Source: Candidatus Nomurabacteria bacterium GW2011_GWA1_36_15
GTDB taxonomy: Bacteria; Patescibacteriota; Minisyncoccia; Phycocordibacterales; UBA9973
Length of the DNA stretch: 64,000 bases
Assembly: GCA_000991415.1 (NCBI GenBank)
Contig: LBRM01000004.1
Location: forward strand, 1,398 to 65,397
Reading direction: 5' to 3'
The notes under the pieces were generated by a model. The model made no database searches, was not told where the DNA came from, and worked only from the letters and a program-made list of their open reading frames with translations. The translations under genes and the position numbers were made by a program. How positions within the stretch are numbered: the first letter of the stretch is position 1; the number at the start of each line of letters is the position of its first letter. Positions 10,745 to 63,374 of this stretch are shown piece after piece.

Positions 10745-11671
10745 ATGGCTAACCGGCACCTTTCAAGATCAATAGTACTCCAAACGCTTTTTGAGTGGGA
10801 TTTTATCTCTACCTCGGGGCAAAATAAAACTTGGACTGATAAAAAAATAAAAGAAGTTCTAAATAAAAATCTTAAAGAATTTGCTCCCGGATTGGAGGAT
10901 AATGTTTTTGTGTTTTCTTTAGTAGAGGAAGTATTGAAAAAATGTAAAGCAGTTGACGAGATAATAAAAAAAGCTGCACCAGACTGGCCGCTGGATAAAA
11001 TTTCCATTGTTGATAGAAATATTTTAAGAATTGGTTTGACAGAACTTCTTTTTGGTAATAGAAATCAAGTACCTCCCAAGGTGGCAATCAATGAAGCAAT
11101 AGAACTGGCTAAAACTTTTGGCGGGGAAAATTCCGGTAAATTTGTGAATGGCGTGCTGGGTGCAGTTTATAAAGAAATTGGCGAACCCGGCAAAGAACAA
11201 ATAAGCAAGAAGAAAAGAAAAGAAGAACCATTAGATATTACAAAGATGCCGGTTGAAAAATTAGGAGGGGCGTTGGTGTACGCAAAAAGAAATGGTAATA
11301 TTTTGTTCGCCTTGGTACATGATGTTTTTGGCTATTGGACTTTATCAAAAGGTAAAGTTGAAGAAAGTGAAGATGTAAAAAATGGCACAATAAGAGAAAT
11401 AAGAGAAGAGATTGGTTTAGATATTATAATTAAAGAAAAGTTGGGAGAAAATGAATATGTAGCTTCTCATCCAGAAAAAGGAAAAATTCTGAAAAAAGTG
11501 GTTTATTTTTTAGCAGAAAGTAAATACCAAAAACTCCAGCTTGAAAATTCCGGCGGGCTAGATGGAGCCAAATGGTTTCAGCTTTCAGAAATTCCGGAAC
11601 TTCGCATTTATAATGATATTATTCCACTTATCACCAAGGCGATTGAAATACTGAATAGTGGAAAGTTATAA
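10745..11671 (+). CDS. nusB: transcription antitermination factor NusB fused to C-terminal Nudix hydrolase domain
   Basis: N-terminal NusB (LFEWDF...DRNILRIGLTEL...ELAKTFGGENSGKFVNGVLG); C-terminal Nudix box GKVEESEDVKNGTIREIREEIGL (Gx5Ex7REUxEExGU). Confidence 0.8.
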   Translation: MANRHLSRSIVLQTLFEWDFISTSGQNKTWTDKKIKEVLNKNLKEFAPGLEDNVFVFSLVEEVLKKCKAVDEIIKKAAPDWPLDKISIVDRNILRIGLTELLFGNRNQVPPKVAINEAIELAKTFGGENSGKFVNGVLGAVYKEIGEPGKEQISKKKRKEEPLDITKMPVEKLGGALVYAKRNGNILFALVHDVFGYWTLSKGKVEESEDVKNGTIREIREEIGLDIIIKEKLGENEYVASHPEKGKILKKVVYFLAESKYQKLQLENSGGLDGAKWFQLSEIPELRIYNDIIPLITKAIEILNSGKL

Positions 11672-20412: not shown

Positions 20413-23400
20413 ATGCAAACAGAAAAACGTCCGAAAAAATATTTTTCAAGGTATAAAAACCCGCTAATAGAATTTCCGAATTTAATAGAAGCTCAAACTA
20501 AATCCTATAAATGGCTGGTAGAAGAGGGTTTAAAAGAAGTTTTTAAAGAATTTTCTCCAATCATAGATTACTCTGGGAAAAAATTTGAACTTGAATTTAC
20601 CTCCTTTTCTCTGAGCGAACCGAACTGCGAAGAAAATGACGCTAAAATAAATAAACTATCGTATCAAGGGCTCCTTAAAACTCGGGTAAAATTAACGAAC
20701 AAAATATTAGGTACGGTTAAAGAACAGGAGATTTTTATGTCAGAAATTCCCTTAATGACCCCGCACGGAACTTTCATTATAAATGGGGTGGAACGTGTTA
20801 TTGTTCCTCAGCTGGCACGTTCTTTCGGAGTTTTCTTTACTGAGTCAGAAAGTAAAGGTTATATAAGAATAGACAAAAAAAGAAAATTTCCTGCCACAGC
20901 CCTATTGCGTGTTCTGGGTTATAACACCAATGAAACGATATTAAAAGCATTTGAGAAAACTCCTAATTGCAAAGAAGTAATTGAAGCTTGTTTAGCGAAG
21001 GATGTCGCTAAAACATTAAGTGATTCATATATTGAAATATATAAACGTTTAAGAGATGGAGACATGGCTACACCTGAAAATGCTAAAGAGTTCATCAATT
21101 CTTTGTTTACTCCCGAAAGATATGATCTTTCTCCGGTTGGACGATATAGATTCAATAAACGTTTCGATAAGTCATTAGAGGAAAAAGAACTTGTACGCCG
21201 AACTATCTCTAAAGAAGATTTGATGACAGTAATTGCGAATATTATTGTCTTGAACAATACTCTGGGCGCCAAATCTGATGACATAGACCATTTGGGGCAA
21301 AGACGTGTTCGATTTGTTGGAGAAATGCTTCAGCAAAAAGTACGCACAGGCATGATGCAGATTAAAAGAAATATTCAAGACAGAATGTCTATTATTGACG
21401 TTGATACTGCTATGCCTATTCACATTATTAACCAGCGTCCACTTCAAGCCCGCATCAAGGAATTTTTTACTACCAATCAACTTTCACAATTTATGGCGCA
21501 AGAAAATGTACTTTGCGAAATGGAGCACTTGCGTACTCTTTCAGCCCTTGGTCCTGGTGGTCTGACTCGTGAACGTGCAGGTCTCGAGGTGCGAGATGTA
21601 CATCCAAGTCACTATGGAAGAGTTTGTCCAATTCACACTCCGGAAGGCCCTAACATCGGACTTATTTTACATCTTTCTACTTATGCAAAAATTAATGATT
21701 TCGGAATTATTGAAACCCCGTATATAAAAGTAAAAAATGGAAAAATTACCAAGGAAATTCAATATTTAAATGCGCTTGAAGAAGAGAAGTACAATATTGC
21801 TCATGCAGGAATTCCTTATGATGAAAATGGGAAAATAACAGAAGAAAAAGTGGAAGCTAGAGTAAAAACTAATCCGGGTATGATTACTCGCAACCAAGTT
21901 GATTTTATTGATGTGGCAGCCAATCAGGGTTTTTCTGTAGCCACTTCTATGATTCCTTTCTTGGAACACAACGACGCCAATCGCGCCCTGATGGGATCTA
22001 ATATGCAGAAACAAGCTGTTCCTTGCGTGCTTCCCGAAGTACCTTTGGTGGCAACGGGCGTTGAAGCTTTGGCTTCTCGTGACTCTGGCAGAATGGTTCT
22101 TGCCTCAGAGGATGGGGTTGTTTCTTATTTAGATGCAAAAAAAATAATAGTAAAAGGAAAGACAGAAAAAATATATTCTCTTGTTAATTTTTTGAGAAAT
22201 AATAATTTTTCTGCATTTCATCAACGCCCGGCGGTAAATATCGGTCAAAAGGTGAAAAAAGGTGATGTATTAGCCGATACAACAAGCACCGTAGATGGAC
22301 AAATCTCAATTGGTCAGAATGTTTTTATCGCTTTCTTGTCTTGGTCTGGATTAAACTATGAAGATGCTGTCATTATTTCCGAACGGCTGGTAAAGAAAAG
22401 TAAATTTACCAGCGTGTATGTTGAAGAATTTGTCTGCACGGTTCGTGATACCAAACTTGGACCTGAAATTACTACTCGGGACATACCTAATGTCGGAGAA
22501 TTAAAACTTAAAGACTTGGATGAGGACGGCATTGTTCGTATTGGAGCCGAAGTCAGAGAAAATGATATTTTAATCGGTAAAATTACACCTAAAGGTGAGA
22601 CTGAACTTACCCCGGAAGAACGATTATTACGTTCAATTTTTGCTGAAAAAGCGCGTGATGTTAAGGACACCTCCCTTCGTATGGAGCATGGAAAACGCGG
22701 ACGTATTATCGGCATTAAAATTTTCTCCCGTGACTTGGGTCATACTCTTGAGGCAGGGATCATCAAGAAAATTGTTATTGAGGTTGCTCAAATTAGAAAT
22801 ATTTCAGTTGGAGATAAACTTTCTGGACGACATGGAAACAAGGGAGTTATTTCTAGAATCCTTCCGGAGGAAGATATGCCTTACACAGCAGAAGGCATAC
22901 CAGTTGATATAATACTTTCACCCCTGGGTGTTCCTTCTCGTATGAATTTAGGACAAATTTTAGAAATGCATCTTGGCATGGCAGCTAATGCTCTAGGTTA
23001 TCAAGCCGTTGTTCCTCCATTTCTAGGAGCAAAACGCGAAGAAATAAAAGAGGAGTTGAAAAAAGCCGGGCTTCCAGAAAATGGCAAATTAAAACTTTTT
23101 GATGGGCGTACCGGGGAAAGTTTTGATCAGGATGTGGCTGTCGGCTATATGTATATGTTGAAATTGCATCACATGGTGGAAGATAAAATTCATATGCGAT
23201 CTATTGGACCTTATTCTCTTATTACTCAACAGCCTTTAGGGGGAAAAGCTCAAGGTGGAGGACAAAGATTTGGAGAAATGGAAGTTTGGGCCTTGGAAGG
23301 ATATGGGGCAGCCTATACATTGCGAGAAATGCTTACCATCAAGTCCGATGATATTTTGGGTCGTTCTCAGACATTTGATTCTATTATAAAAAATGAAATC

Positions 23401-23499
23401 ATTAAACCGCCAAATTCTCCTGCCTCATTTAATGTTTTGCTTAATTATCTACGAGGACTTGCGCTTGATGTTAACTTGAAAAAATATGAAAACTCTTAA
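20413..23499 (+). CDS. rpoB: DNA-directed RNA polymerase subunit beta
   Basis: 1028 aa; conserved regions incl. GPGGLTRERAGLEVRDVHPSHYGRVCPIHTPEGPNIGL, NMQKQAVP, GRHGNKGV, MVEDKIHMRSIGPYSLITQQPLGGKAQGGGQRFGEMEVWALEGYGAAYTLREML. Confidence 0.97.
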   Translation: MQTEKRPKKYFSRYKNPLIEFPNLIEAQTKSYKWLVEEGLKEVFKEFSPIIDYSGKKFELEFTSFSLSEPNCEENDAKINKLSYQGLLKTRVKLTNKILGTVKEQEIFMSEIPLMTPHGTFIINGVERVIVPQLARSFGVFFTESESKGYIRIDKKRKFPATALLRVLGYNTNETILKAFEKTPNCKEVIEACLAKDVAKTLSDSYIEIYKRLRDGDMATPENAKEFINSLFTPERYDLSPVGRYRFNKRFDKSLEEKELVRRTISKEDLMTVIANIIVLNNTLGAKSDDIDHLGQRRVRFVGEMLQQKVRTGMMQIKRNIQDRMSIIDVDTAMPIHIINQRPLQARIKEFFTTNQLSQFMAQENVLCEMEHLRTLSALGPGGLTRERAGLEVRDVHPSHYGRVCPIHTPEGPNIGLILHLSTYAKINDFGIIETPYIKVKNGKITKEIQYLNALEEEKYNIAHAGIPYDENGKITEEKVEARVKTNPGMITRNQVDFIDVAANQGFSVATSMIPFLEHNDANRALMGSNMQKQAVPCVLPEVPLVATGVEALASRDSGRMVLASEDGVVSYLDAKKIIVKGKTEKIYSLVNFLRNNNFSAFHQRPAVNIGQKVKKGDVLADTTSTVDGQISIGQNVFIAFLSWSGLNYEDAVIISERLVKKSKFTSVYVEEFVCTVRDTKLGPEITTRDIPNVGELKLKDLDEDGIVRIGAEVRENDILIGKITPKGETELTPEERLLRSIFAEKARDVKDTSLRMEHGKRGRIIGIKIFSRDLGHTLEAGIIKKIVIEVAQIRNISVGDKLSGRHGNKGVISRILPEEDMPYTAEGIPVDIILSPLGVPSRMNLGQILEMHLGMAANALGYQAVVPPFLGAKREEIKEELKKAGLPENGKLKLFDGRTGESFDQDVAVGYMYMLKLHHMVEDKIHMRSIGPYSLITQQPLGGKAQGGGQRFGEMEVWALEGYGAAYTLREMLTIKSDDILGRSQTFDSIIKNEIIKPPNSPASFNVLLNYLRGLALDVNLKKYENS

Positions 23500-27096: not shown

Positions 27097-27483
27097 ATGG
27101 AAAAAGAATATGATAATTGGAATAAATTAAAAAAAGATTTATCAACCAAGGAATCAAAAATTTTCTTTCATGAAAGGGAAGTTTGGTACTGCTCTTTAGG
27201 TAAAAATATTGGTTACGAAGAAGACGGCAAAAATGAATTATTTGAAAGACCAATTCTTATCGTTAGAAAATTTAATAATGATATATTCCTAGCTATTCCA
27301 TTAACTAGTTCAAAAAAAGATAATAAATACTACCATCAATACGAATTCAGTGGAAAAACTTTTGCTGGTATCCTATCGCAAATAAGATTATTAGACAGTA
27401 GGAGGCTTTCTAGAAAAATTGGGATGATAAAAGAAAGTGATTTTAGTACTATAATTAAAAAGATTCACAATGTTCTTCCATAA
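27097..27483 (+). CDS. mazF: PemK/MazF-family endoribonuclease toxin (orphan; no adjacent small antitoxin ORF)
   Basis: 128 aa; EREVWYCSLGKNIGYEEDGKNELFERPILIVRKFNNDIFLAIPLTS and GILSQIRLLDSRRLSRKIGMIKESDF align with EndoA/MazF core (GDVY..L.P..GSEQ.G.RPVLVI...TS...QIRTIDKQRL..KI..L); starts 5 bp after rpoC stop. Confidence 0.75.
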   Translation: MEKEYDNWNKLKKDLSTKESKIFFHEREVWYCSLGKNIGYEEDGKNELFERPILIVRKFNNDIFLAIPLTSSKKDNKYYHQYEFSGKTFAGILSQIRLLDSRRLSRKIGMIKESDFSTIIKKIHNVLP

Positions 27484-27488
27484 AAGAC

Positions 27489-27515
27489 GAAACCCCCTTG
27501 CGGGGGTTTCTCGGA
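27489..27515 (+). terminator. hairpin / probable terminator
   Basis: gaaaccccc-ttgc-gggggtttc 9-bp GC-rich stem; weak U-tract. Confidence 0.45.
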
Positions 27516-27558
27516 GGCCGAAGCCATTTACCACTAGAGTATAGCAAATGTAAAATAT

Positions 27559-28191
27559 ATGTCAAATGAAGAAGTGGAAAATATAAATCCCTTTAAAAAA
27601 GTAGAAAATTCTTTAACCAAAGAGCAATTTTTAAATATAGATGAGGTATTTAAGGATAATCTCGAAATAGCTAATATATTTAATGCAAACAAAGAATTAT
27701 TTCAGAAATATCTTGATAGTATTTTTCCAGATAGTAAGGTTAAGGAAATTGTCTGGCATGGAACAAATTCAAAATTTGAAGAAGAAAAATTTGATAAATC
27801 AAGAATAGGTACATCTACTCAAAATATTACTAGTAAATTTGGATTTTATTTTGTTCCAGATAAAAAAGTCGCTGGAATTTTTACAAAAGGAAGTAAAATA
27901 GAAGCAGATAAGGGAATTATTCGACCCGAGAATTCAAAAATATATCCTGTACTTTTATTAATAAAAAATCCTGAAATAATAGAAGGAAAAATTTTTAGAG
28001 AATATGCTGAAAGAAATGAAATGCCACCTCTAAGACTAAATGGTGATTCTATTATAATTAATGCACAGACTAGTGATGCTAATGTTGAATTTTGTGTTAA
28101 AAACTATGTAGTATTTGAACCAGAACAAATTCATATTCTAGGTTCAGAGCAAGATATCTTACAAGCTAAAGAATGGTTAAAAAACAAATGA
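27559..28191 (+). CDS. putative ADP-ribosyltransferase-fold protein (PARP/Tpt1-like H-G-T ... Y ... E)
   Basis: 210 aa; EIVWHGTNSKFEEEKF resembles PARP LLWHGSRTTNF and KptA LYHGTASRFLDEIKK; FGFYFVPD resembles GIYFAD; C-terminal NYVVFEPEQIHILG resembles tankyrase/PARP NEYVIYRGEQ catalytic-Glu strand. Assignment by motif inspection only. Confidence 0.4.
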   Translation: MSNEEVENINPFKKVENSLTKEQFLNIDEVFKDNLEIANIFNANKELFQKYLDSIFPDSKVKEIVWHGTNSKFEEEKFDKSRIGTSTQNITSKFGFYFVPDKKVAGIFTKGSKIEADKGIIRPENSKIYPVLLLIKNPEIIEGKIFREYAERNEMPPLRLNGDSIIINAQTSDANVEFCVKNYVVFEPEQIHILGSEQDILQAKEWLKNK

Positions 28192-29015
28192 TGATAAACT
28201 CTCCCGTGCAACAAATTAAGGAGAGGCTTTCAATCGAAGAAATAGTCTCTTCCTATATAAAGTTAGAAAAGGCAGGCGCGAATTTTAAAGCCAGATGTCC
28301 ATTTCATAACGAAAAAACACCGTCTTTTTTTGTGTCGCCGGATCGCGCCAGTTACTATTGTTTCGGTTGCGGAGCCAAAGGCGATATTTTTTCTTTTATT
28401 GAAGAATTTGAAGGGCTTGATTTTAAGGGCGCCTTAAAAATCCTGGCAGAGCGAGCGGGAATTCCTTTAGTGCAGTACAGTAAAGAAAAAGAAGGAGAGA
28501 AAGAAAAATTATACCGAGCGATGGAAGAAGCTACCAAATTTTTTGAAAAAAATTTAGCAGAAAATAAGAAAATACTGGAATACTTGAAATCAAGAGGTCT
28601 AGAAGAAAAAACAATCGGAGATTTTAAAATTGGATTTTCTTTGCTTGATTGGAGAACGTTATTTGAGTATTTGAAATCTAAAGGTTTTTCTGATAAAGAA
28701 ATTGAACTTGCTGGTTTGGTAAAGAAGACAGAGAAAGGATTTTATGACAGATTTCGCGGAAGAATAATGTTTCCAATTTCTGATTCAAGCGGTCGCATTA
28801 TTGCTTTTTCCGGCAGGATTTTTGAAGATGACGGTAAATCAGCCAAATATCTGAATAGCCCGGACACTCCAATCTTCAGTAAATCGGCAGTTTTGTATGG
28901 ATTGGATAAAGCCAAAGAATCGATTCGCAAAAATAATTTTTCTATTCTGGTGGAAGGACAAATGGATTTGATCTTATCTCATCAGGCTGGATTTAGAAAT
29001 ACCGTAGCCATTTAG
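28173..29015 (+). CDS. dnaG: DNA primase DnaG, N-terminal fragment (zinc-binding + start of TOPRIM), truncated by TAG created by 19-bp tandem duplication
   Basis: CPFHNEKTPSFFVSPDRASYYCFGCGAKGD CHC2 zinc finger; RNA-polymerase domain; ends ...ILVEGQMDLILSHQAGFRNTVAI*. Confidence 0.85.
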   Translation: MVKKQMMINSPVQQIKERLSIEEIVSSYIKLEKAGANFKARCPFHNEKTPSFFVSPDRASYYCFGCGAKGDIFSFIEEFEGLDFKGALKILAERAGIPLVQYSKEKEGEKEKLYRAMEEATKFFEKNLAENKKILEYLKSRGLEEKTIGDFKIGFSLLDWRTLFEYLKSKGFSDKEIELAGLVKKTEKGFYDRFRGRIMFPISDSSGRIIAFSGRIFEDDGKSAKYLNSPDTPIFSKSAVLYGLDKAKESIRKNNFSILVEGQMDLILSHQAGFRNTVAI

Positions 29016-29029
29016 AAATACCGTAGCCA
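28992..29029 (+). repeat. perfect 19-bp tandem duplication (tttagaaataccgtagcca x2) inside dnaG
   Basis: Copy 1 28992-29010, copy 2 29011-29029; removing one copy restores a single dnaG frame reading ...GFRNTVATSGTALSDA... (canonical TOPRIM motif). Confidence 0.9.
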
Positions 29030-29193
29030 CCTCCGGTACAGCTCTTTCAGATGCTACGGTTTCCAAAGAAAATGTCGTTTCAAATTTAGGATTATTACGC
29101 CGTCTTTCCGGGAATATTATTCTGGCTTTTGACGCAGATCGGGCAGGCTTTAATGCTTCTTCCCGGGCCGGCAAAATTGCTCTTTCTTTCGGT

Positions 29194-29925
29194 ATGGATG
29201 TAAAAGTAGTTTCTATGTCGGAAGGGATTGACCCGGCAAGTTTAATTTCCCAAGATGGCACAGATGCATGGCGCACGGCTATTCGTAACTCAAAGCACAT
29301 CATAGAATTTCTTTTGGACAAGATTTTGAATAGCCACAAAGAAGATATGCGCAAGGTTGGCAGAGAAATAAGAGAAAAAATATTGCCGTATGTCGATTCC
29401 ATTGAAAGCGCCATCGAAAAATCACATTTTATTAAAATTATCAGCAACAAATCTGGTATAGCTGAGAACGCTCTTTTAGAAGATCTGAAAAAGGTTCAGT
29501 CTGAATTGAAATTTGAAACAGAAGAGATAAGAACTGCTAAAGAAAATGTGGAGAAAAAAATGAGAAAAGATCCGATTGAACGCAGACTTCTAGGTATAGC
29601 CTTTTGGCAGGAGAACATTCAAGATAAAACCATTGATCCGGAATTGATTTTTCAAAAATTAGACAAAGCGAAAGAAATTTATAAGGATATAGAAGAAGAT
29701 TTAATTTATGAAGCGGAGGAATTTTATTCAAACAGCGAGAATTTGCAAAAAGATGTAGATGAAATGCTGTTAAATATTGAAGAGGAATATTTAAACGAAG
29801 AACTGAATAAAAAGATGGTGGAACTTAATAATTTTAAAAATAAAAAAGAGGAGATGGAAATTTTGAAAAAGATAAATGAAATAATTAAGAAAAAAGAAGA
29901 AATTAGAAATAATCGTAGTCGCTAA
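29194..29925 (+). CDS. dnaG: DNA primase DnaG, C-terminal fragment (frame open from 29008; first Met at 29194)
   Basis: Frame contiguous with post-duplication dnaG: TSGTALSDATVSKENVVSNLGLLRRLSGNIILAFDADRAG (TOPRIM DxD) ... C-terminal helical domain. Confidence 0.8.
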
Positions 29926-29933
29926 TAAAAAAC

Positions 29934-31163
29934 ATGAAAACAAAAAACAAAAAATCAAAGAAAAAAATCGCAAAATCTAAATCAAAAAAGATCCACAAGA
30001 AAGCTGTAAAAAAGGTGACAAAAAAAAGAAAAGCACTTAAAAAATTCAAAAAACCCTTAAAAACAAAGGCTCTAAAAAAACTGACCTCTGCAGAAAAAAA
30101 AGCAGACGCCTTTGCTCGTCTTTCAAGTGAATTGATAGAAAAAGGGCGAAAAAGAGGATTTATCACCTATGATGAAATACTAAAGACTTTTCCGGATGTT
30201 GAAAATAATATTTTCTTCCTAGACGAACTGTATGAGAAATTTGCCATTGCGGGCATAGATGTACTGGAAGGCGGAAACTTGCTTAATCTGGATGATGATA
30301 ATCTTGATAAGGATTTAAATAAATCTACCATCCATGACTCTATTCAAATGTATTTGAAAGAAATAGGACAATATTCGCTTATTCATGCAAGCGATGAAAA
30401 ATATCTCGCTAAACGCATAGAACTAGGCGATCTGGAGGCGAAAAATTTATTAGCCAGAGCGAATCTACGCTTAGTGGTTTCAATTGCTAAAAAATATGTA
30501 GGTAGAAGCGCTAATTTAAACCTCTTGGATCTAATTCAAGAAGGGAATTTAGGACTATTTAAGGCAGTTGAAAAATTCGATTGGACTAAAGGATATAAAT
30601 TTTCCACTTATGCCACCTGGTGGATTCGTCAATCTATTACTCGTGCCTTAGCTGACCAAAGCAGGACCATTCGTATACCGGTGCATATGGTGGAAACTAT
30701 TTCAAAATATAAACAAACATATCGAAAACTTAGCCAAGACCTGGGACGAGAACCGTTAGCGGAAGAAATTGCCACAGAAATGAATATTCCCGTTGAAAAA
30801 ATCCACGTAATTGAAAACATCAGCCAAGAGACTGTTTCTCTAGAACAGCCGGTGGGGGACGATGACGATAAGTCAACTCTTGAAAATTTTATTCCGGATG
30901 ATAAAATTTTGCGTCCGGATCAGGAATCTTCTCGCAGGATCTTGTCCGATCAGATTCGGGAAGTTTTAAACGAACTGAATCCGAAAGAATGCAAAATACT
31001 GGAAATGCGTTATGGATTAGTAGATGGCATTCAACATACTCTTGAACGAGTAGGGGAGGAGTTTGGTGTTACTCGCGAACGTATTCGTCAAATAGAAGCG
31101 AAAGTTCATGAAAAACTTCGCCAACACGAAAAAATCACAAGGTTAAAGAATTATTTTGACTAA
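29934..31163 (+). CDS. rpoD: RNA polymerase sigma factor RpoD (sigma-70) with Lys-rich N-terminal tail
   Basis: Regions 2-4: [52 protein letters not shown]-terminal [20 protein letters not shown]; follows dnaG (MMS operon order). Confidence 0.95.
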
Positions 31164-32264: not shown

Positions 32265-32567
32265 ATGTGTAAAGATTGTTGTAAAAAAGGTGGTTGTACT
32301 ACAGCTTTGGTTGGCAAGATTCTAGTAATTGTGGGAGGAGTAAACTGGGGTTTGGTAGGTTTAGGTATGCTTTTAGGTAGTGTGGGGGGTTGGAATGTTG
32401 TAAATATGATTTTGGGTTCTGTGCCTGTGTTGGAAGCAGTGGTTTACGTATTGGTAGGTATTTCGGCTGTGATGATGATTTTTGGTTGTAAATGCGGCAA
32501 ATGTGTGAATGGTGTTTGTGCTTGTTGCGCAAATACGGATGCAAATAAAACAGAGGGAGGAATGTAA
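32265..32567 (+). CDS. DUF378-family small membrane protein with Cys-rich N- and C-termini
   Basis: GGVNWGLVGLGMLLGSVGGWNVV matches DUF378 GLNWGLVG core; flanked by CKDCCKKGGC and CKCGKCVNGVCACC; TTGAAG-17-TATAAT promoter upstream. Confidence 0.6.
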   Translation: MCKDCCKKGGCTTALVGKILVIVGGVNWGLVGLGMLLGSVGGWNVVNMILGSVPVLEAVVYVLVGISAVMMIFGCKCGKCVNGVCACCANTDANKTEGGM

Positions 32568-32587
32568 TTTACACAGTTTTTTCAAAA

Positions 32588-32619
32588 AAGAGCGAAAACT
32601 TTTGTATTCGCTCTTTTTT
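32588..32619 (+). terminator. rho-independent terminator
   Basis: agagcgaa-loop-ttcgctct followed by TTTTTT. Confidence 0.75.
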
Positions 32620-32663
32620 CGTTTGCTTTTTCCATCTAAGATGCTATATTCTAATATATAAAT

Positions 32664-33938
32664 ATGGTTTCATTTTCAGGTGTGGTATTCTATGTTTTGA
32701 CTTTTTTGTCTGTTTATGTGCAGGTGTTTTTTCTGATTACTTTTCTTGAGAATAGAAAAAAAATAATTATAAGAAATGAACCAGTTAAACTTGCTAAGTA
32801 TCCGAAGGTGACAATCATTGTTCCTTGTTGGGATGAAGAAAAAACAATTTACAAAACAGTACGTTCTTTACTTAACTTGAATTATCCGAAAGATAAAATT
32901 GAAATTTTTTTAATCGATGATGGATCCACTGATGGCACCTGGAATATCATTAGAAAATTTGCTAAACCTGCCCGACCCAACGGTCGTTCGGGCGGGTATC
33001 CCAATATAAGAATTTTTCATAAAGAAAATGGCGGTAAGTATACTGCCCTGAATCTAGGTCTCAAATACGTTCAAACTAATTTTTTGGGTTGTCTTGATGC
33101 TGACTCTGTGGCGGACCCCGAATCCCTTGTTCGTGTCATAAGTTATTTTGAAAAGGATCCTAACATTATGGCAGTGGCTCCGTCAATCATAGCTTTCAAA
33201 TCCAAAAATATAATTCAAAATGCTCAAAAAGCTGAATATGATATGTCTGTTTATATCAAAAAAATGCTTGGTTTTTTAGGGGCTATTCATGTTACTCCCG
33301 GTCCGTTAACCATCTTTCGCAGAAAAGTCTTTGATGATTTGGGTCCTTATCGTCATGCGCACAACACAGAAGACATGGAAATCGCTTACAGAATGCAAAA
33401 AAATCATTACAGAATAGAACAATGCAATGACGCTTATGTTTATACCAATACTCCTTTAACGATTAGAAAACTTTATAGGCAGAGATTGCGTTGGATTTAT
33501 GGATTCATAAATAATACGATCGATTATCGGAAAATACTTTTTAGAAAAAATTACGGTAATTTTTCACTCTTTACCATACCTTCCAGCATTATTTCTATTT
33601 TTGCTGTCGGTTTTCTTTTTGGGAAAATGATTTATAGTTTGGGTAGTTTTTTATTCTCAAAAATTATTCAATTTCAGGCCATAGGTCTTCATTTACCGAA
33701 TAAGGTAGATTATCTTGATCCATTTTTCATCAATACTCAGACTTTATTTTTTATTGTGGTAATATTATATTTTTTGATAATGTTTTCGATAATCTTGGGA
33801 AGAAAAATGACTGAAGGCAAATGGGGTTTTTCTTTTGATATGATTTACTTTCTTTTAATTTTCAGCGCTATTGGCCCGTTCTGGCTTTTAAAGGCGGTTT
33901 ATAATACTGTTTTATCCAGGAAACCAGGCTGGAGATAA
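32664..33938 (+). CDS. family-2 processive beta-glycosyltransferase (PgaC/IcaA/cellulose-synthase-like)
   Basis: N-terminal TM, DDGSTDGT, YTALNLG, LDADSVADPESL (DxD), QRLRWIYG (QxxRW), C-terminal TM helices. Confidence 0.75.
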   Translation: MVSFSGVVFYVLTFLSVYVQVFFLITFLENRKKIIIRNEPVKLAKYPKVTIIVPCWDEEKTIYKTVRSLLNLNYPKDKIEIFLIDDGSTDGTWNIIRKFAKPARPNGRSGGYPNIRIFHKENGGKYTALNLGLKYVQTNFLGCLDADSVADPESLVRVISYFEKDPNIMAVAPSIIAFKSKNIIQNAQKAEYDMSVYIKKMLGFLGAIHVTPGPLTIFRRKVFDDLGPYRHAHNTEDMEIAYRMQKNHYRIEQCNDAYVYTNTPLTIRKLYRQRLRWIYGFINNTIDYRKILFRKNYGNFSLFTIPSSIISIFAVGFLFGKMIYSLGSFLFSKIIQFQAIGLHLPNKVDYLDPFFINTQTLFFIVVILYFLIMFSIILGRKMTEGKWGFSFDMIYFLLIFSAIGPFWLLKAVYNTVLSRKPGWR

Positions 33939-33978: not shown

Positions 33979-34680
33979 ATGGAAAATAATACTCATATTG
34001 ATTGGAAAAAATATGTAATTGTCTTTTTGTTTACGGTTGGACTTTTTCTAAGCGCCAGTTATGTCAGCAATTATTTTGGCAACAAGAAAATTGATCAATT
34101 GAAATTGATTCAAGATAAAATTTCTATCGATATCTTATCTTCCGAGACTCAATTTTCGTTACTCTCAGAACTTTCTTGTAAAAATATTTCTGATTCTATA
34201 ATTTCTGGTGAGCTCGGCGAGCTAGGGCGTAAACTAGAATGGGGACAGGAAAATATAGGTATGACTGATACAGTTTCCTATTTGAAAAAATATTATTCTC
34301 TGCTAGAAATTAAAGACTATCTTTTAACAAAAAAGATTTCTGCCCGTTGTAATACAAAATCCGCATTTATTCTTTATTTTTATACCACCGCGGAAAATTG
34401 CAGTGAATGTGAAAAGCAGGGACTAGCCCTTTCAGCTCTCAGGGATAAATATCCGGAACTCCGCGTATACTCTTTTGATTATAGTATTGATCTTTCAGCT
34501 GTAAAGGCGATGCTTCAAATATACAAAATAGAAGATACAAAGCTTCCCGCATTAGTTATTGATGAAGACGTATTGACTGGTTTCCATAGTATAGACGAGC
34601 TTGAAATTCGCGTAAAAGAATCTTTCAAGCTTCAGGAAACGAAGCCGGAAGAGGCTGTTCCACAAAAAACTCAGTTATAA
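33979..34680 (+). CDS. membrane-anchored thioredoxin-like protein (CSEC active-site-like motif)
   Basis: N-terminal TM; ILYFYTTAENCSECEKQ resembles Trx-fold WCxxC region; otherwise uncharacterised. Confidence 0.35.
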   Translation: MENNTHIDWKKYVIVFLFTVGLFLSASYVSNYFGNKKIDQLKLIQDKISIDILSSETQFSLLSELSCKNISDSIISGELGELGRKLEWGQENIGMTDTVSYLKKYYSLLEIKDYLLTKKISARCNTKSAFILYFYTTAENCSECEKQGLALSALRDKYPELRVYSFDYSIDLSAVKAMLQIYKIEDTKLPALVIDEDVLTGFHSIDELEIRVKESFKLQETKPEEAVPQKTQL

Positions 34681-43031: not shown

Positions 43032-43104
43032 GCCGGCATAGCTCAGTTGGTAGAGCGCCACTTTTGTAAAGTGGATGTCGAGGGTTCAAATCCTTCTGCC
43101 GGCT
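43032..43104 (+). tRNA. tRNA-Thr (anticodon TGT)
   Basis: Cloverleaf: acceptor gccggca/tgccggc, D-arm gctc-agttggta-gagc, anticodon stem ccact/agtgg with loop ttTGTaa, T-arm gaggg-ttcaaat-ccttc; CCA not encoded. Confidence 0.85.
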
Positions 43105-43106
43105 CA

Positions 43107-62712: not shown

Positions 62713-63374
62713 CCTATTTGTTTTTAAAATATTTAAAGGATGTTGGTAAACAATGTGATGTCCGATAGAAAAATCAGTTACTAAATTTTTGTTATTAGCA
62801 CATAACATTGACAAGATGTCTAGTTTATGCTAATGTATAGTTAGTTACTTGAAAGCCCGGTGATGGACACTAGATAATTGCTTTTTATAAAGCAGTTCCC
62901 TTATTTAGTGTTCATCATCGGGCTTTTTTGTTTCTTGTTGACTAGACAAGACCTAGTCAAAGACCTAGTCAAAGCATAATATATAATGGCTATTACTATT
63001 ATACGACCTGAAGCAATAAAACGAAAGGTATGGGGATTTTATACACAGTTTATTAACAGATACTATTTGACATATTTGTGTGAAATGGCAATATAGTTCG
63101 TAGTAGTATATTCACAAACCAATGAATTGGTTTTATGGATAGAAAAATAAATCAAGATTCTTGCTGGGAACCAAGAGTATGGATATTGGAGTAAAGATAA
63201 AAGATCAAGGAATCTGATTTATGTTAAAAAAATTCTCAAGATCAATATTTACTCAATAAATATTCTATATTTATATAAAATCCTATTTGATATAGGATTC
63301 TGTTCTTTAATAAATCCGAATCGTTGTGTTTTGTATTTTATTAAATTTTTCAAAATATAGAAAGGAAAATATGT

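Follow-up and report, generated by a model that had tools for sequence, protein, structure and literature searches.

Is the primase gene dnaG of Candidatus Nomurabacteria bacterium GW2011_GWA1_36_15 split in the living organism, or only in its deposited contig? The question arises at positions 28173 to 29925 of the window, by which we mean the whole 64,000-nt stretch of contig sequence that was analyzed, where a 19-nt unit stands twice in tandem inside the gene. As possible explanations, the original prediction named an artefact of assembly or sequencing, an allele of a subpopulation, and an unusual mechanism of expression. The pattern across independent assemblies strongly supports the first of these. 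We conclude that the duplication is very probably a local assembly error in the GW2011_GWA1_36_15 contig and that the organism carries an ordinary, intact dnaG-rpoD pair. All features described below lie on the forward strand, and their coordinates refer to the window unless stated otherwise.

The duplication and the reading frame of dnaG

A scan of the window sequence bore out the predicted perfect 19-bp tandem duplication inside the Toprim region of dnaG. The unit TTTAGAAATACCGTAGCCA occupies 28992..29010 (copy 1) and 29011..29029 (copy 2) and has no further occurrence in the window on either strand. Both copies abut, the junction reading ...CCGTAGCCATTTAGAAATACC..., and the window is free of Ns. 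Because the strictly periodic tract spans 28991-29029 (39 nt), the position of the duplication junction carries an ambiguity of 1 nt. Among the tandem repeats of the window, this duplication ranks highest (TRF score 78, 100% match). Perfect tandem duplications with units of at least 8 nt number just two, the other having a 12-nt unit at 62948-62974. A 19-nt tandem duplication lies far beyond chance expectation in a 64-kb sequence of 35% GC.

As deposited, the N-terminal open reading frame (28173-29015) encodes 280 aa, comprising the zinc ribbon and the DNAG_N domain together with ~23 residues from the start of Toprim. It terminates at a TAG (29013..29015) that is brought in frame by the +1 shift. 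The first copy of the unit had been predicted to supply this stop codon; the scan places it in the second copy instead, the TAG of copy 1 being out of frame (ttt aga). In the public record, the N-terminal fragment is an exact match that starts from the second ATG of the reading frame (KKP98393.1, 275 aa, 28188..29015). The remainder of Toprim is encoded in the +1 frame, which is open from 29008 and whose earliest ATG, GTG, or TTG is found at 29194, 3' of the DxD motif. The corresponding C-terminal fragment (KKP98394.1, 243 aa, 29194..29925) contains neither the DxD motif nor any Pfam match. Its Met at 29194 lacks a ribosome binding site, as anticipated, since the preceding sequence CTCTTTCTTTCGGT shows no Shine-Dalgarno-like purine run. 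The reading frame breaks between the Toprim glutamate (ILVEGQMD) and the DxD motif (FDADRAG).

Deletion of one copy joins both parts into a single dnaG (28173..29925) with a product of 577 aa, in agreement with the original prediction, which reads ...GFRNTVATSGTALSDA... across the repaired site. The protein contains a CHC2 zinc ribbon (PF01807, E = 9e-34, residues 11-99) with the CPFH...CFGC motif visible, and the RNA polymerase catalytic core (DNAG_N, PF08275, E = 2e-42, whole profile 1-128). After repair, the Pfam match to Toprim is continuous (profile positions 4-84 of 85, E = 4e-13). A continuous Toprim with glutamate and DxD on one polypeptide is absent from the sequence as deposited, in which the N-terminal fragment covers profile positions 4-26 and the C-terminal frame positions 20-84. 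The repaired protein aligns end to end with the DnaG structures 2au3 (Aquifex; E = 1e-68) and 4e2k (Staphylococcus aureus), and its core also aligns with 1dd9 (Escherichia coli).

With these bacterial primases it shares, once repaired, the zinc ribbon, the RNA polymerase core, the Toprim glutamate and DxD motif, and a downstream rpoD. It differs from them in the deposited frame, which is broken between the Toprim glutamate and DxD, and in its C-terminal ~240 residues (~340-577), which match no Pfam family at E ≤ 0.01. This C-terminal region, examined for the helicase-binding domain of DnaG-type primases, shows conservation of both its length and its sequence among Nomurabacteria homologs. The sigma-70 gene rpoD (29934..31163) follows directly 3' of dnaG in the usual dnaG-rpoD arrangement, with 9 nt between the dnaG stop and the rpoD start; identical rpoD genes in sibling loci show Pfam matches to Sigma70 regions r1-r4.

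Other assemblies of the same population

Exact sequence matching placed both primase fragments and the RpoB product of the window (KKP98389.1) on one 84,048-bp contig of GW2011_GWA1_36_15. Among ~15 billion proteins, the truncated 275-aa N-terminal fragment is found on this single contig, and the same holds for the window's version of RpoB. By comparison, the repaired primase is 100% identical to proteins of 577 aa (P0001), 572 aa (P0002), and 571 aa (P0003), as well as to P0004 and P0005. The first three derive from 1, 12, and 18 contigs, respectively, originating from NCBI, JGI, ENA, and Logan, and upwards of 30 contigs from this population encode the identical, intact primase. Three further GW2011 genomes carry the intact gene (P0002 comprises three KKP accessions).

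At the nucleotide level, the 19-mer is present as a single copy in 14 of 14 fetched loci (L001-L014) and in two defective sibling loci (L015 and L016), giving 16 of 16; copy 2 of the window is extra relative to all other assemblies. Five of these loci (L004, L005, L006, L008, and L010) show 0 mismatches to the window across 5.7-21.7 kb, the window's own lesions aside. Loci L010, L012, L013, and L014 were assembled by another group from SAMN03202998, SAMN03202997, SAMN03203005, and SAMN03203001. The twelve Rifle groundwater samples are SAMN03202994-SAMN03203005 (Burstein et al. 2016, PMC4742961). As the BioSamples of these four loci are among those twelve, the loci are re-assemblies of the series that yielded the GW2011 genomes; this comparison covers the twelve-sample series as a whole. 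Since all other assemblies have a single copy and an intact gene, we attribute the duplication to a join error during metagenome assembly. A split gene is thus a correct description of the deposited sequence and very probably an incorrect one of the organism.

The best-surviving alternative is a real 19-bp tandem duplication, generated by replication slippage and shared by some or all cells of the GWA1-filter population. The resulting primase-null allele would be either very recent or confined to non-viable or decaying cells. Living cells do generate tandem duplications of such a size, and the junction displays 1 nt of microhomology (A). However, the allele is missing from every one of the >30 contigs whose population is otherwise identical, the re-assemblies of the same series among them, and its flanks are undiverged, with 0 mismatches over ~20 kb.

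Three sibling genomes, moreover, show other lesions at the same dnaG site. GW2011_GWA2_35_80 (L016, P0023) has one 19-mer followed by a loss of 129 bp, an in-frame deletion of ATSGT...AFDADRAGFN. In GW2011_GWC1_35_21 (L015), the 19-mer is likewise single and 88 bp are lacking from ~12 nt later, the gene being split into 302 + 243 aa. The contig of GW2011_GWB1_35_20 starts ~20 nt downstream of the 19-mer and encodes a partial product (P0122, 'SDATV...'). Five breakpoints fall inside 41 nt of the 1734-nt dnaG. Read as biology, the three sibling lesions would mean that an essential gene had been inactivated several times independently on different filters from the same water.

The contig of the window carries a second lesion, which also counts against a real duplication. 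At the rpoB junction (20859..20860), 78 bp (26 codons) are missing, a loss that is private to the window; these bases are present in L001, L003, L008, L009, and L010. The resulting product (KKP98389.1) has 1028 aa, and the 26 lost residues (KKYFGAKIIPARGVWIEIESESDEAI) are conserved, aligning gap-free to solved RNA polymerase beta subunits. In L015, rpoB lacks 48 bp, with a left edge shared with the 78-bp loss of the window. It is not believable, biologically, that a single contig should carry a private lesion in the conserved core of each of two essential genes.

Over the shared ~21 kb, the five assemblies from the original pipeline contain 2, 2, 0, 2, and 2-3 private indels (8-9 in total), which fall in rpoB, dnaG, and a gene of 233 aa. 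No private indel was found in nine loci from other pipelines (JGI, MEGAHIT k141, Logan, a third-party NCBI assembly, L007, and L013). This pipeline-specific pattern, together with the further private lesion that the contig of the window has in rpoB, makes the subpopulation allele of the original prediction unlikely, and a real duplication as a whole appears improbable.

A narrower form of the same idea places the duplication in the cells of the 0.1-µm GWA1 filter: an ultra-small CPR bacterium would possess a frameshifted primase, either tolerated through a +1 shift at AUU-UAG or marking a non-replicating sub-population. If this were true, the clustered lesions across samples would point to a true hotspot of mutation in the sequence coding for Toprim. 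We grant it a very slight chance.

Strain mixture and breakpoint positions

Co-occurrence with a related strain of ~92.5% nucleotide identity in dnaG (the ~93% strain; P0009-P0022, L017-L022) is shown at the level of the aquifer and of the ENA assembly series. The longest exact run shared by both strains in dnaG measures 101 nt (gene nt 739-839) and is the sole run of at least 100 nt. It contains the 19-mer (gene nt 820-838) and ends one base past it. In the window, the pre-junction part of this run corresponds to 28911..29010, and the last upstream strain-discriminating base is located at 28910. Copy 1 is the proposed end of a left assembly piece, which reaches window position 29010 (gene nt 838), or 29009 (nt 837) when the 1-nt ambiguity is allowed for, and copy 2 is the proposed start of a right piece. 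The rpoB lesion likewise lies inside a shared inter-strain run, here of 128 nt, and its 78 missing bases cover the following cluster of seven discriminating bases.

Two further products are likewise defective near this site. P0130, which belongs to a different strain, derives from a contig that ends just upstream of the 19-mer site. P0124 is a two-strain chimera whose parent switch falls in the 19-mer region of dnaG.

Distances from the last inter-strain mismatch to the left end of each lesion were measured on the intact reference L008 against one related strain. The 78-bp loss of the window and the 48-bp loss of L015 in rpoB have their left end at 2609 and the last mismatch at 2510, a distance of 99 nt. 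For the 129-bp loss of L016 in dnaG, the left end (10837) and the last mismatch (10738) are again 99 nt apart. The left piece at the 19-bp duplication of the window ends at 10837 or 10838, corresponding to 99 or 100 nt. By chance, only ~2 of 1734 dnaG positions and a handful of positions in rpoB would fit such a rule. Measured against the same related strain, the 99-nt signature is absent for the 88-bp loss of L015 in dnaG, the 11-bp loss of L001 in rpoB, and the 110-bp loss of L016.

IDBA-UD (mink 40, maxk 100, step 20) served to assemble the dataset, after which the script ra2.py automatically corrected local scaffolding errors or turned them into Ns (PMC5220378). Velvet was used to re-assemble error regions (PMC4736985). 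In a graph with k = 100, a strain-specific contig that enters a shared run is bound to stop 99 nt past the last distinguishing base, that is, after k-1 nucleotides. Judging from this geometry, the contig of the present strain may have stopped at the 19-mer, with the next contig overlapping it. Scaffolding, gap closing, or automatic repair would then have joined both pieces at a wrong offset. In GWA1, 19 overlapping bases would thereby have been left in twice, and in other samples the same graph breakpoint would have led to the removal of 48-129 bases or to a contig end. The junction between GTAGCCA and TTTAGAAAT would accordingly be expected to lack read support. At the dnaG duplication of the window, the right piece begins 20-21 nt ahead of the next SNP, a position that could hint at local re-assembly with a small k.

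Errors of a similar kind have been described by the same lab, who found local errors to be prominent in IDBA-UD scaffolds, including unrecognized overlaps that lead to duplicate sequence (Chen, Anantharaman, Shaiber, Eren, Banfield 2020, PMC7111523). The published cases resemble the window in the lab pipeline and assembler, in a short unsupported sequence at the join, in the duplication produced by unmerged overlapping flanks, and in the broken public gene. They differ in that the published duplicated flanks are separated by Ns, whereas the copies of the window abut, perhaps after automatic repair by ra2.py and Velvet.

Two simpler numerical relations were considered and discarded. The length of the unit equals k-1 for k = 20, the default mink of IDBA-UD, but mink was set to 40 here; moreover, a de Bruijn contig alone cannot create a junction that is absent from the reads. 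The 39-nt extent of the periodic tract equals mink-1 and is taken as a coincidence, as 2 × 19 + 1 = 39.

The logic of the de Bruijn graph also offers an argument for a real duplication: such a contig holds only k-mers from reads, so that without post-assembly joining the junction must be contained in the reads. Against this stands the observation that the breakpoints track the k of the assembler.

Remaining readings and significance

A chimeric or PCR-duplicated library fragment that was faithfully assembled would equally place the junction in the reads. Such a read-level artefact accounts for a junction confined to one library without invoking scaffolding, and the nominal coverage, taken from the genome name, is low (15x). 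It leaves unexplained, however, why sibling libraries break at the same nucleotide and why lesions in two separate genes stand in a 99-nt relation to strain mismatches. We therefore regard it as highly improbable.

There is next to no chance that the duplication is both real and expressed, be it through a +1 frameshift at GCC-AUU-UAG that would produce a 6-residue insert (GFRNTVA-IRNTVA-TSGT) or through two polypeptides that reassemble. The shift site of prfB is CUU UGA C. The window site (AUU UAG A) loosely resembles it in that an in-frame stop follows a U-rich, U-ending codon and the downstream frame, open from upstream of the stop, is +1. Unlike programmed frameshifting of the prfB type, the site is unconserved in relatives, has no upstream Shine-Dalgarno-like element, and would place its 6-residue insert in a length-invariant segment. 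Neither insert nor shift occurs in any of the 120 closest homologs or the 16 near-identical loci, and of 108 scored homologs, 105 have a spacing of 52 residues from the Toprim glutamate to DxD. Upstream of the site, ACCGTAGCC contains no Shine-Dalgarno-like stimulator, and a GGAGG-like run was not found in GAAATACCGTAGCC, upstream of the candidate shift site. tRNA-Ile would, in addition, be expected to mispair on UUU. Two separate polypeptides would part the Toprim glutamate from DxD, and the DxD motif would go untranslated because none of the start codons ATG, GTG, and TTG occurs in the C-terminal frame before 29194. As the relatives show neither insertion nor frameshift here, the unusual expression mechanism of the original prediction finds no support.

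If, as we believe, a local assembly error produced the duplication, its significance lies in the public records. KKP98393.1, KKP98394.1, the shortened RpoB KKP98389.1, and the records of at least three sibling genomes contain artefactually broken or shortened essential genes, and UniRef entries derive from KKP98393.1 and KKP98389.1. A distance of k-1 past the last inter-strain mismatch provides a simple test that requires no reads and could flag such errors in strain-mixed metagenome assemblies. For the organism itself, the mis-assembly has no biological consequence: its primase is normal, and the issue is one of data hygiene. For the CPR more widely, inferences of gene loss, pseudogenization, and 'split essential genes' drawn from these drafts of 2015 could be misled.

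Lesions in rpoB

The rpoB reading frame of the window (20413-23499) lacks 78 bp at 20859-20860, corresponding to 26 conserved residues that are present in five other assemblies, and its public product, KKP98389.1, comprises 1028 instead of 1054 amino acids. Together with the dnaG lesion, this gap very likely makes two assembly errors on this contig. In the sibling assembly GW2011_GWC1_35_21 (L015), an rpoB gap of 48 bp shares its left edge with the 78-bp one. A private 11-bp deletion, found only in the sibling GW2011 assembly L001 (GCA_000990975.1; 3020-3406) and corresponding to window position ~23109, splits rpoB into products of 926 and 128 amino acids.

Probable assembly artefacts at and downstream of dnaG

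Among the primase proteins compared, P0124, a 909-amino-acid "primase" from the SRR3989339 assembly, is chimeric: its N-terminal ~270 residues derive from a more distant strain, while the remainder is nearly identical to the window strain. An in-frame fusion joins it to the sigma-70 gene, and both the C-terminus of the primase and the N-terminus of sigma are absent. P0124 is another assembly artefact at the dnaG locus. In the window, RpoD starts with an extremely lysine-rich extension of ~50 residues (29934-30100) preceding sigma region 1.1, and the underlying DNA was scored as an A-rich low-complexity repeat.

A second spot of assembly trouble lies at ~32330-33010. Two re-assemblies of Rifle groundwater samples (L010 and L012) contain N runs there, a third (L014) is missing 11 bp, and L001 carries a private 19-bp deletion at ~32330. 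The length called for the adjoining gene, which has PaaX_M and weak Cas2-like matches, varies between 152 and 122 amino acids depending on the assembly. A further private deletion of ~110 bp was observed in GW2011_GWA2_35_80 (L016, 8511-8981; window 34408-34518), shortening a 233-amino-acid hypothetical protein to 156 amino acids.

Other features of the window

Besides the 19-bp duplication in dnaG, the only perfect tandem duplication in the window with a unit of at least 8 nt is AAGACCTAGTCA (62948-62974), with 2.2 copies of a 12-nt unit, an in-frame length. ARAGORN identified a single tRNA gene in the 64 kb, a tRNA-Thr with anticodon TGT (43032-43105).

Two genes separate rpoC from dnaG: one encodes a PemK-like toxin (27097-27483), and the other (27559-28191) weakly matches ART-PolyVal, an ADP-ribosyltransferase-like domain. 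Because dnaG directly follows rpoC in the related ~93% Nomurabacteria strain (L019), the two-gene island (27097-28191) is strain-specific.
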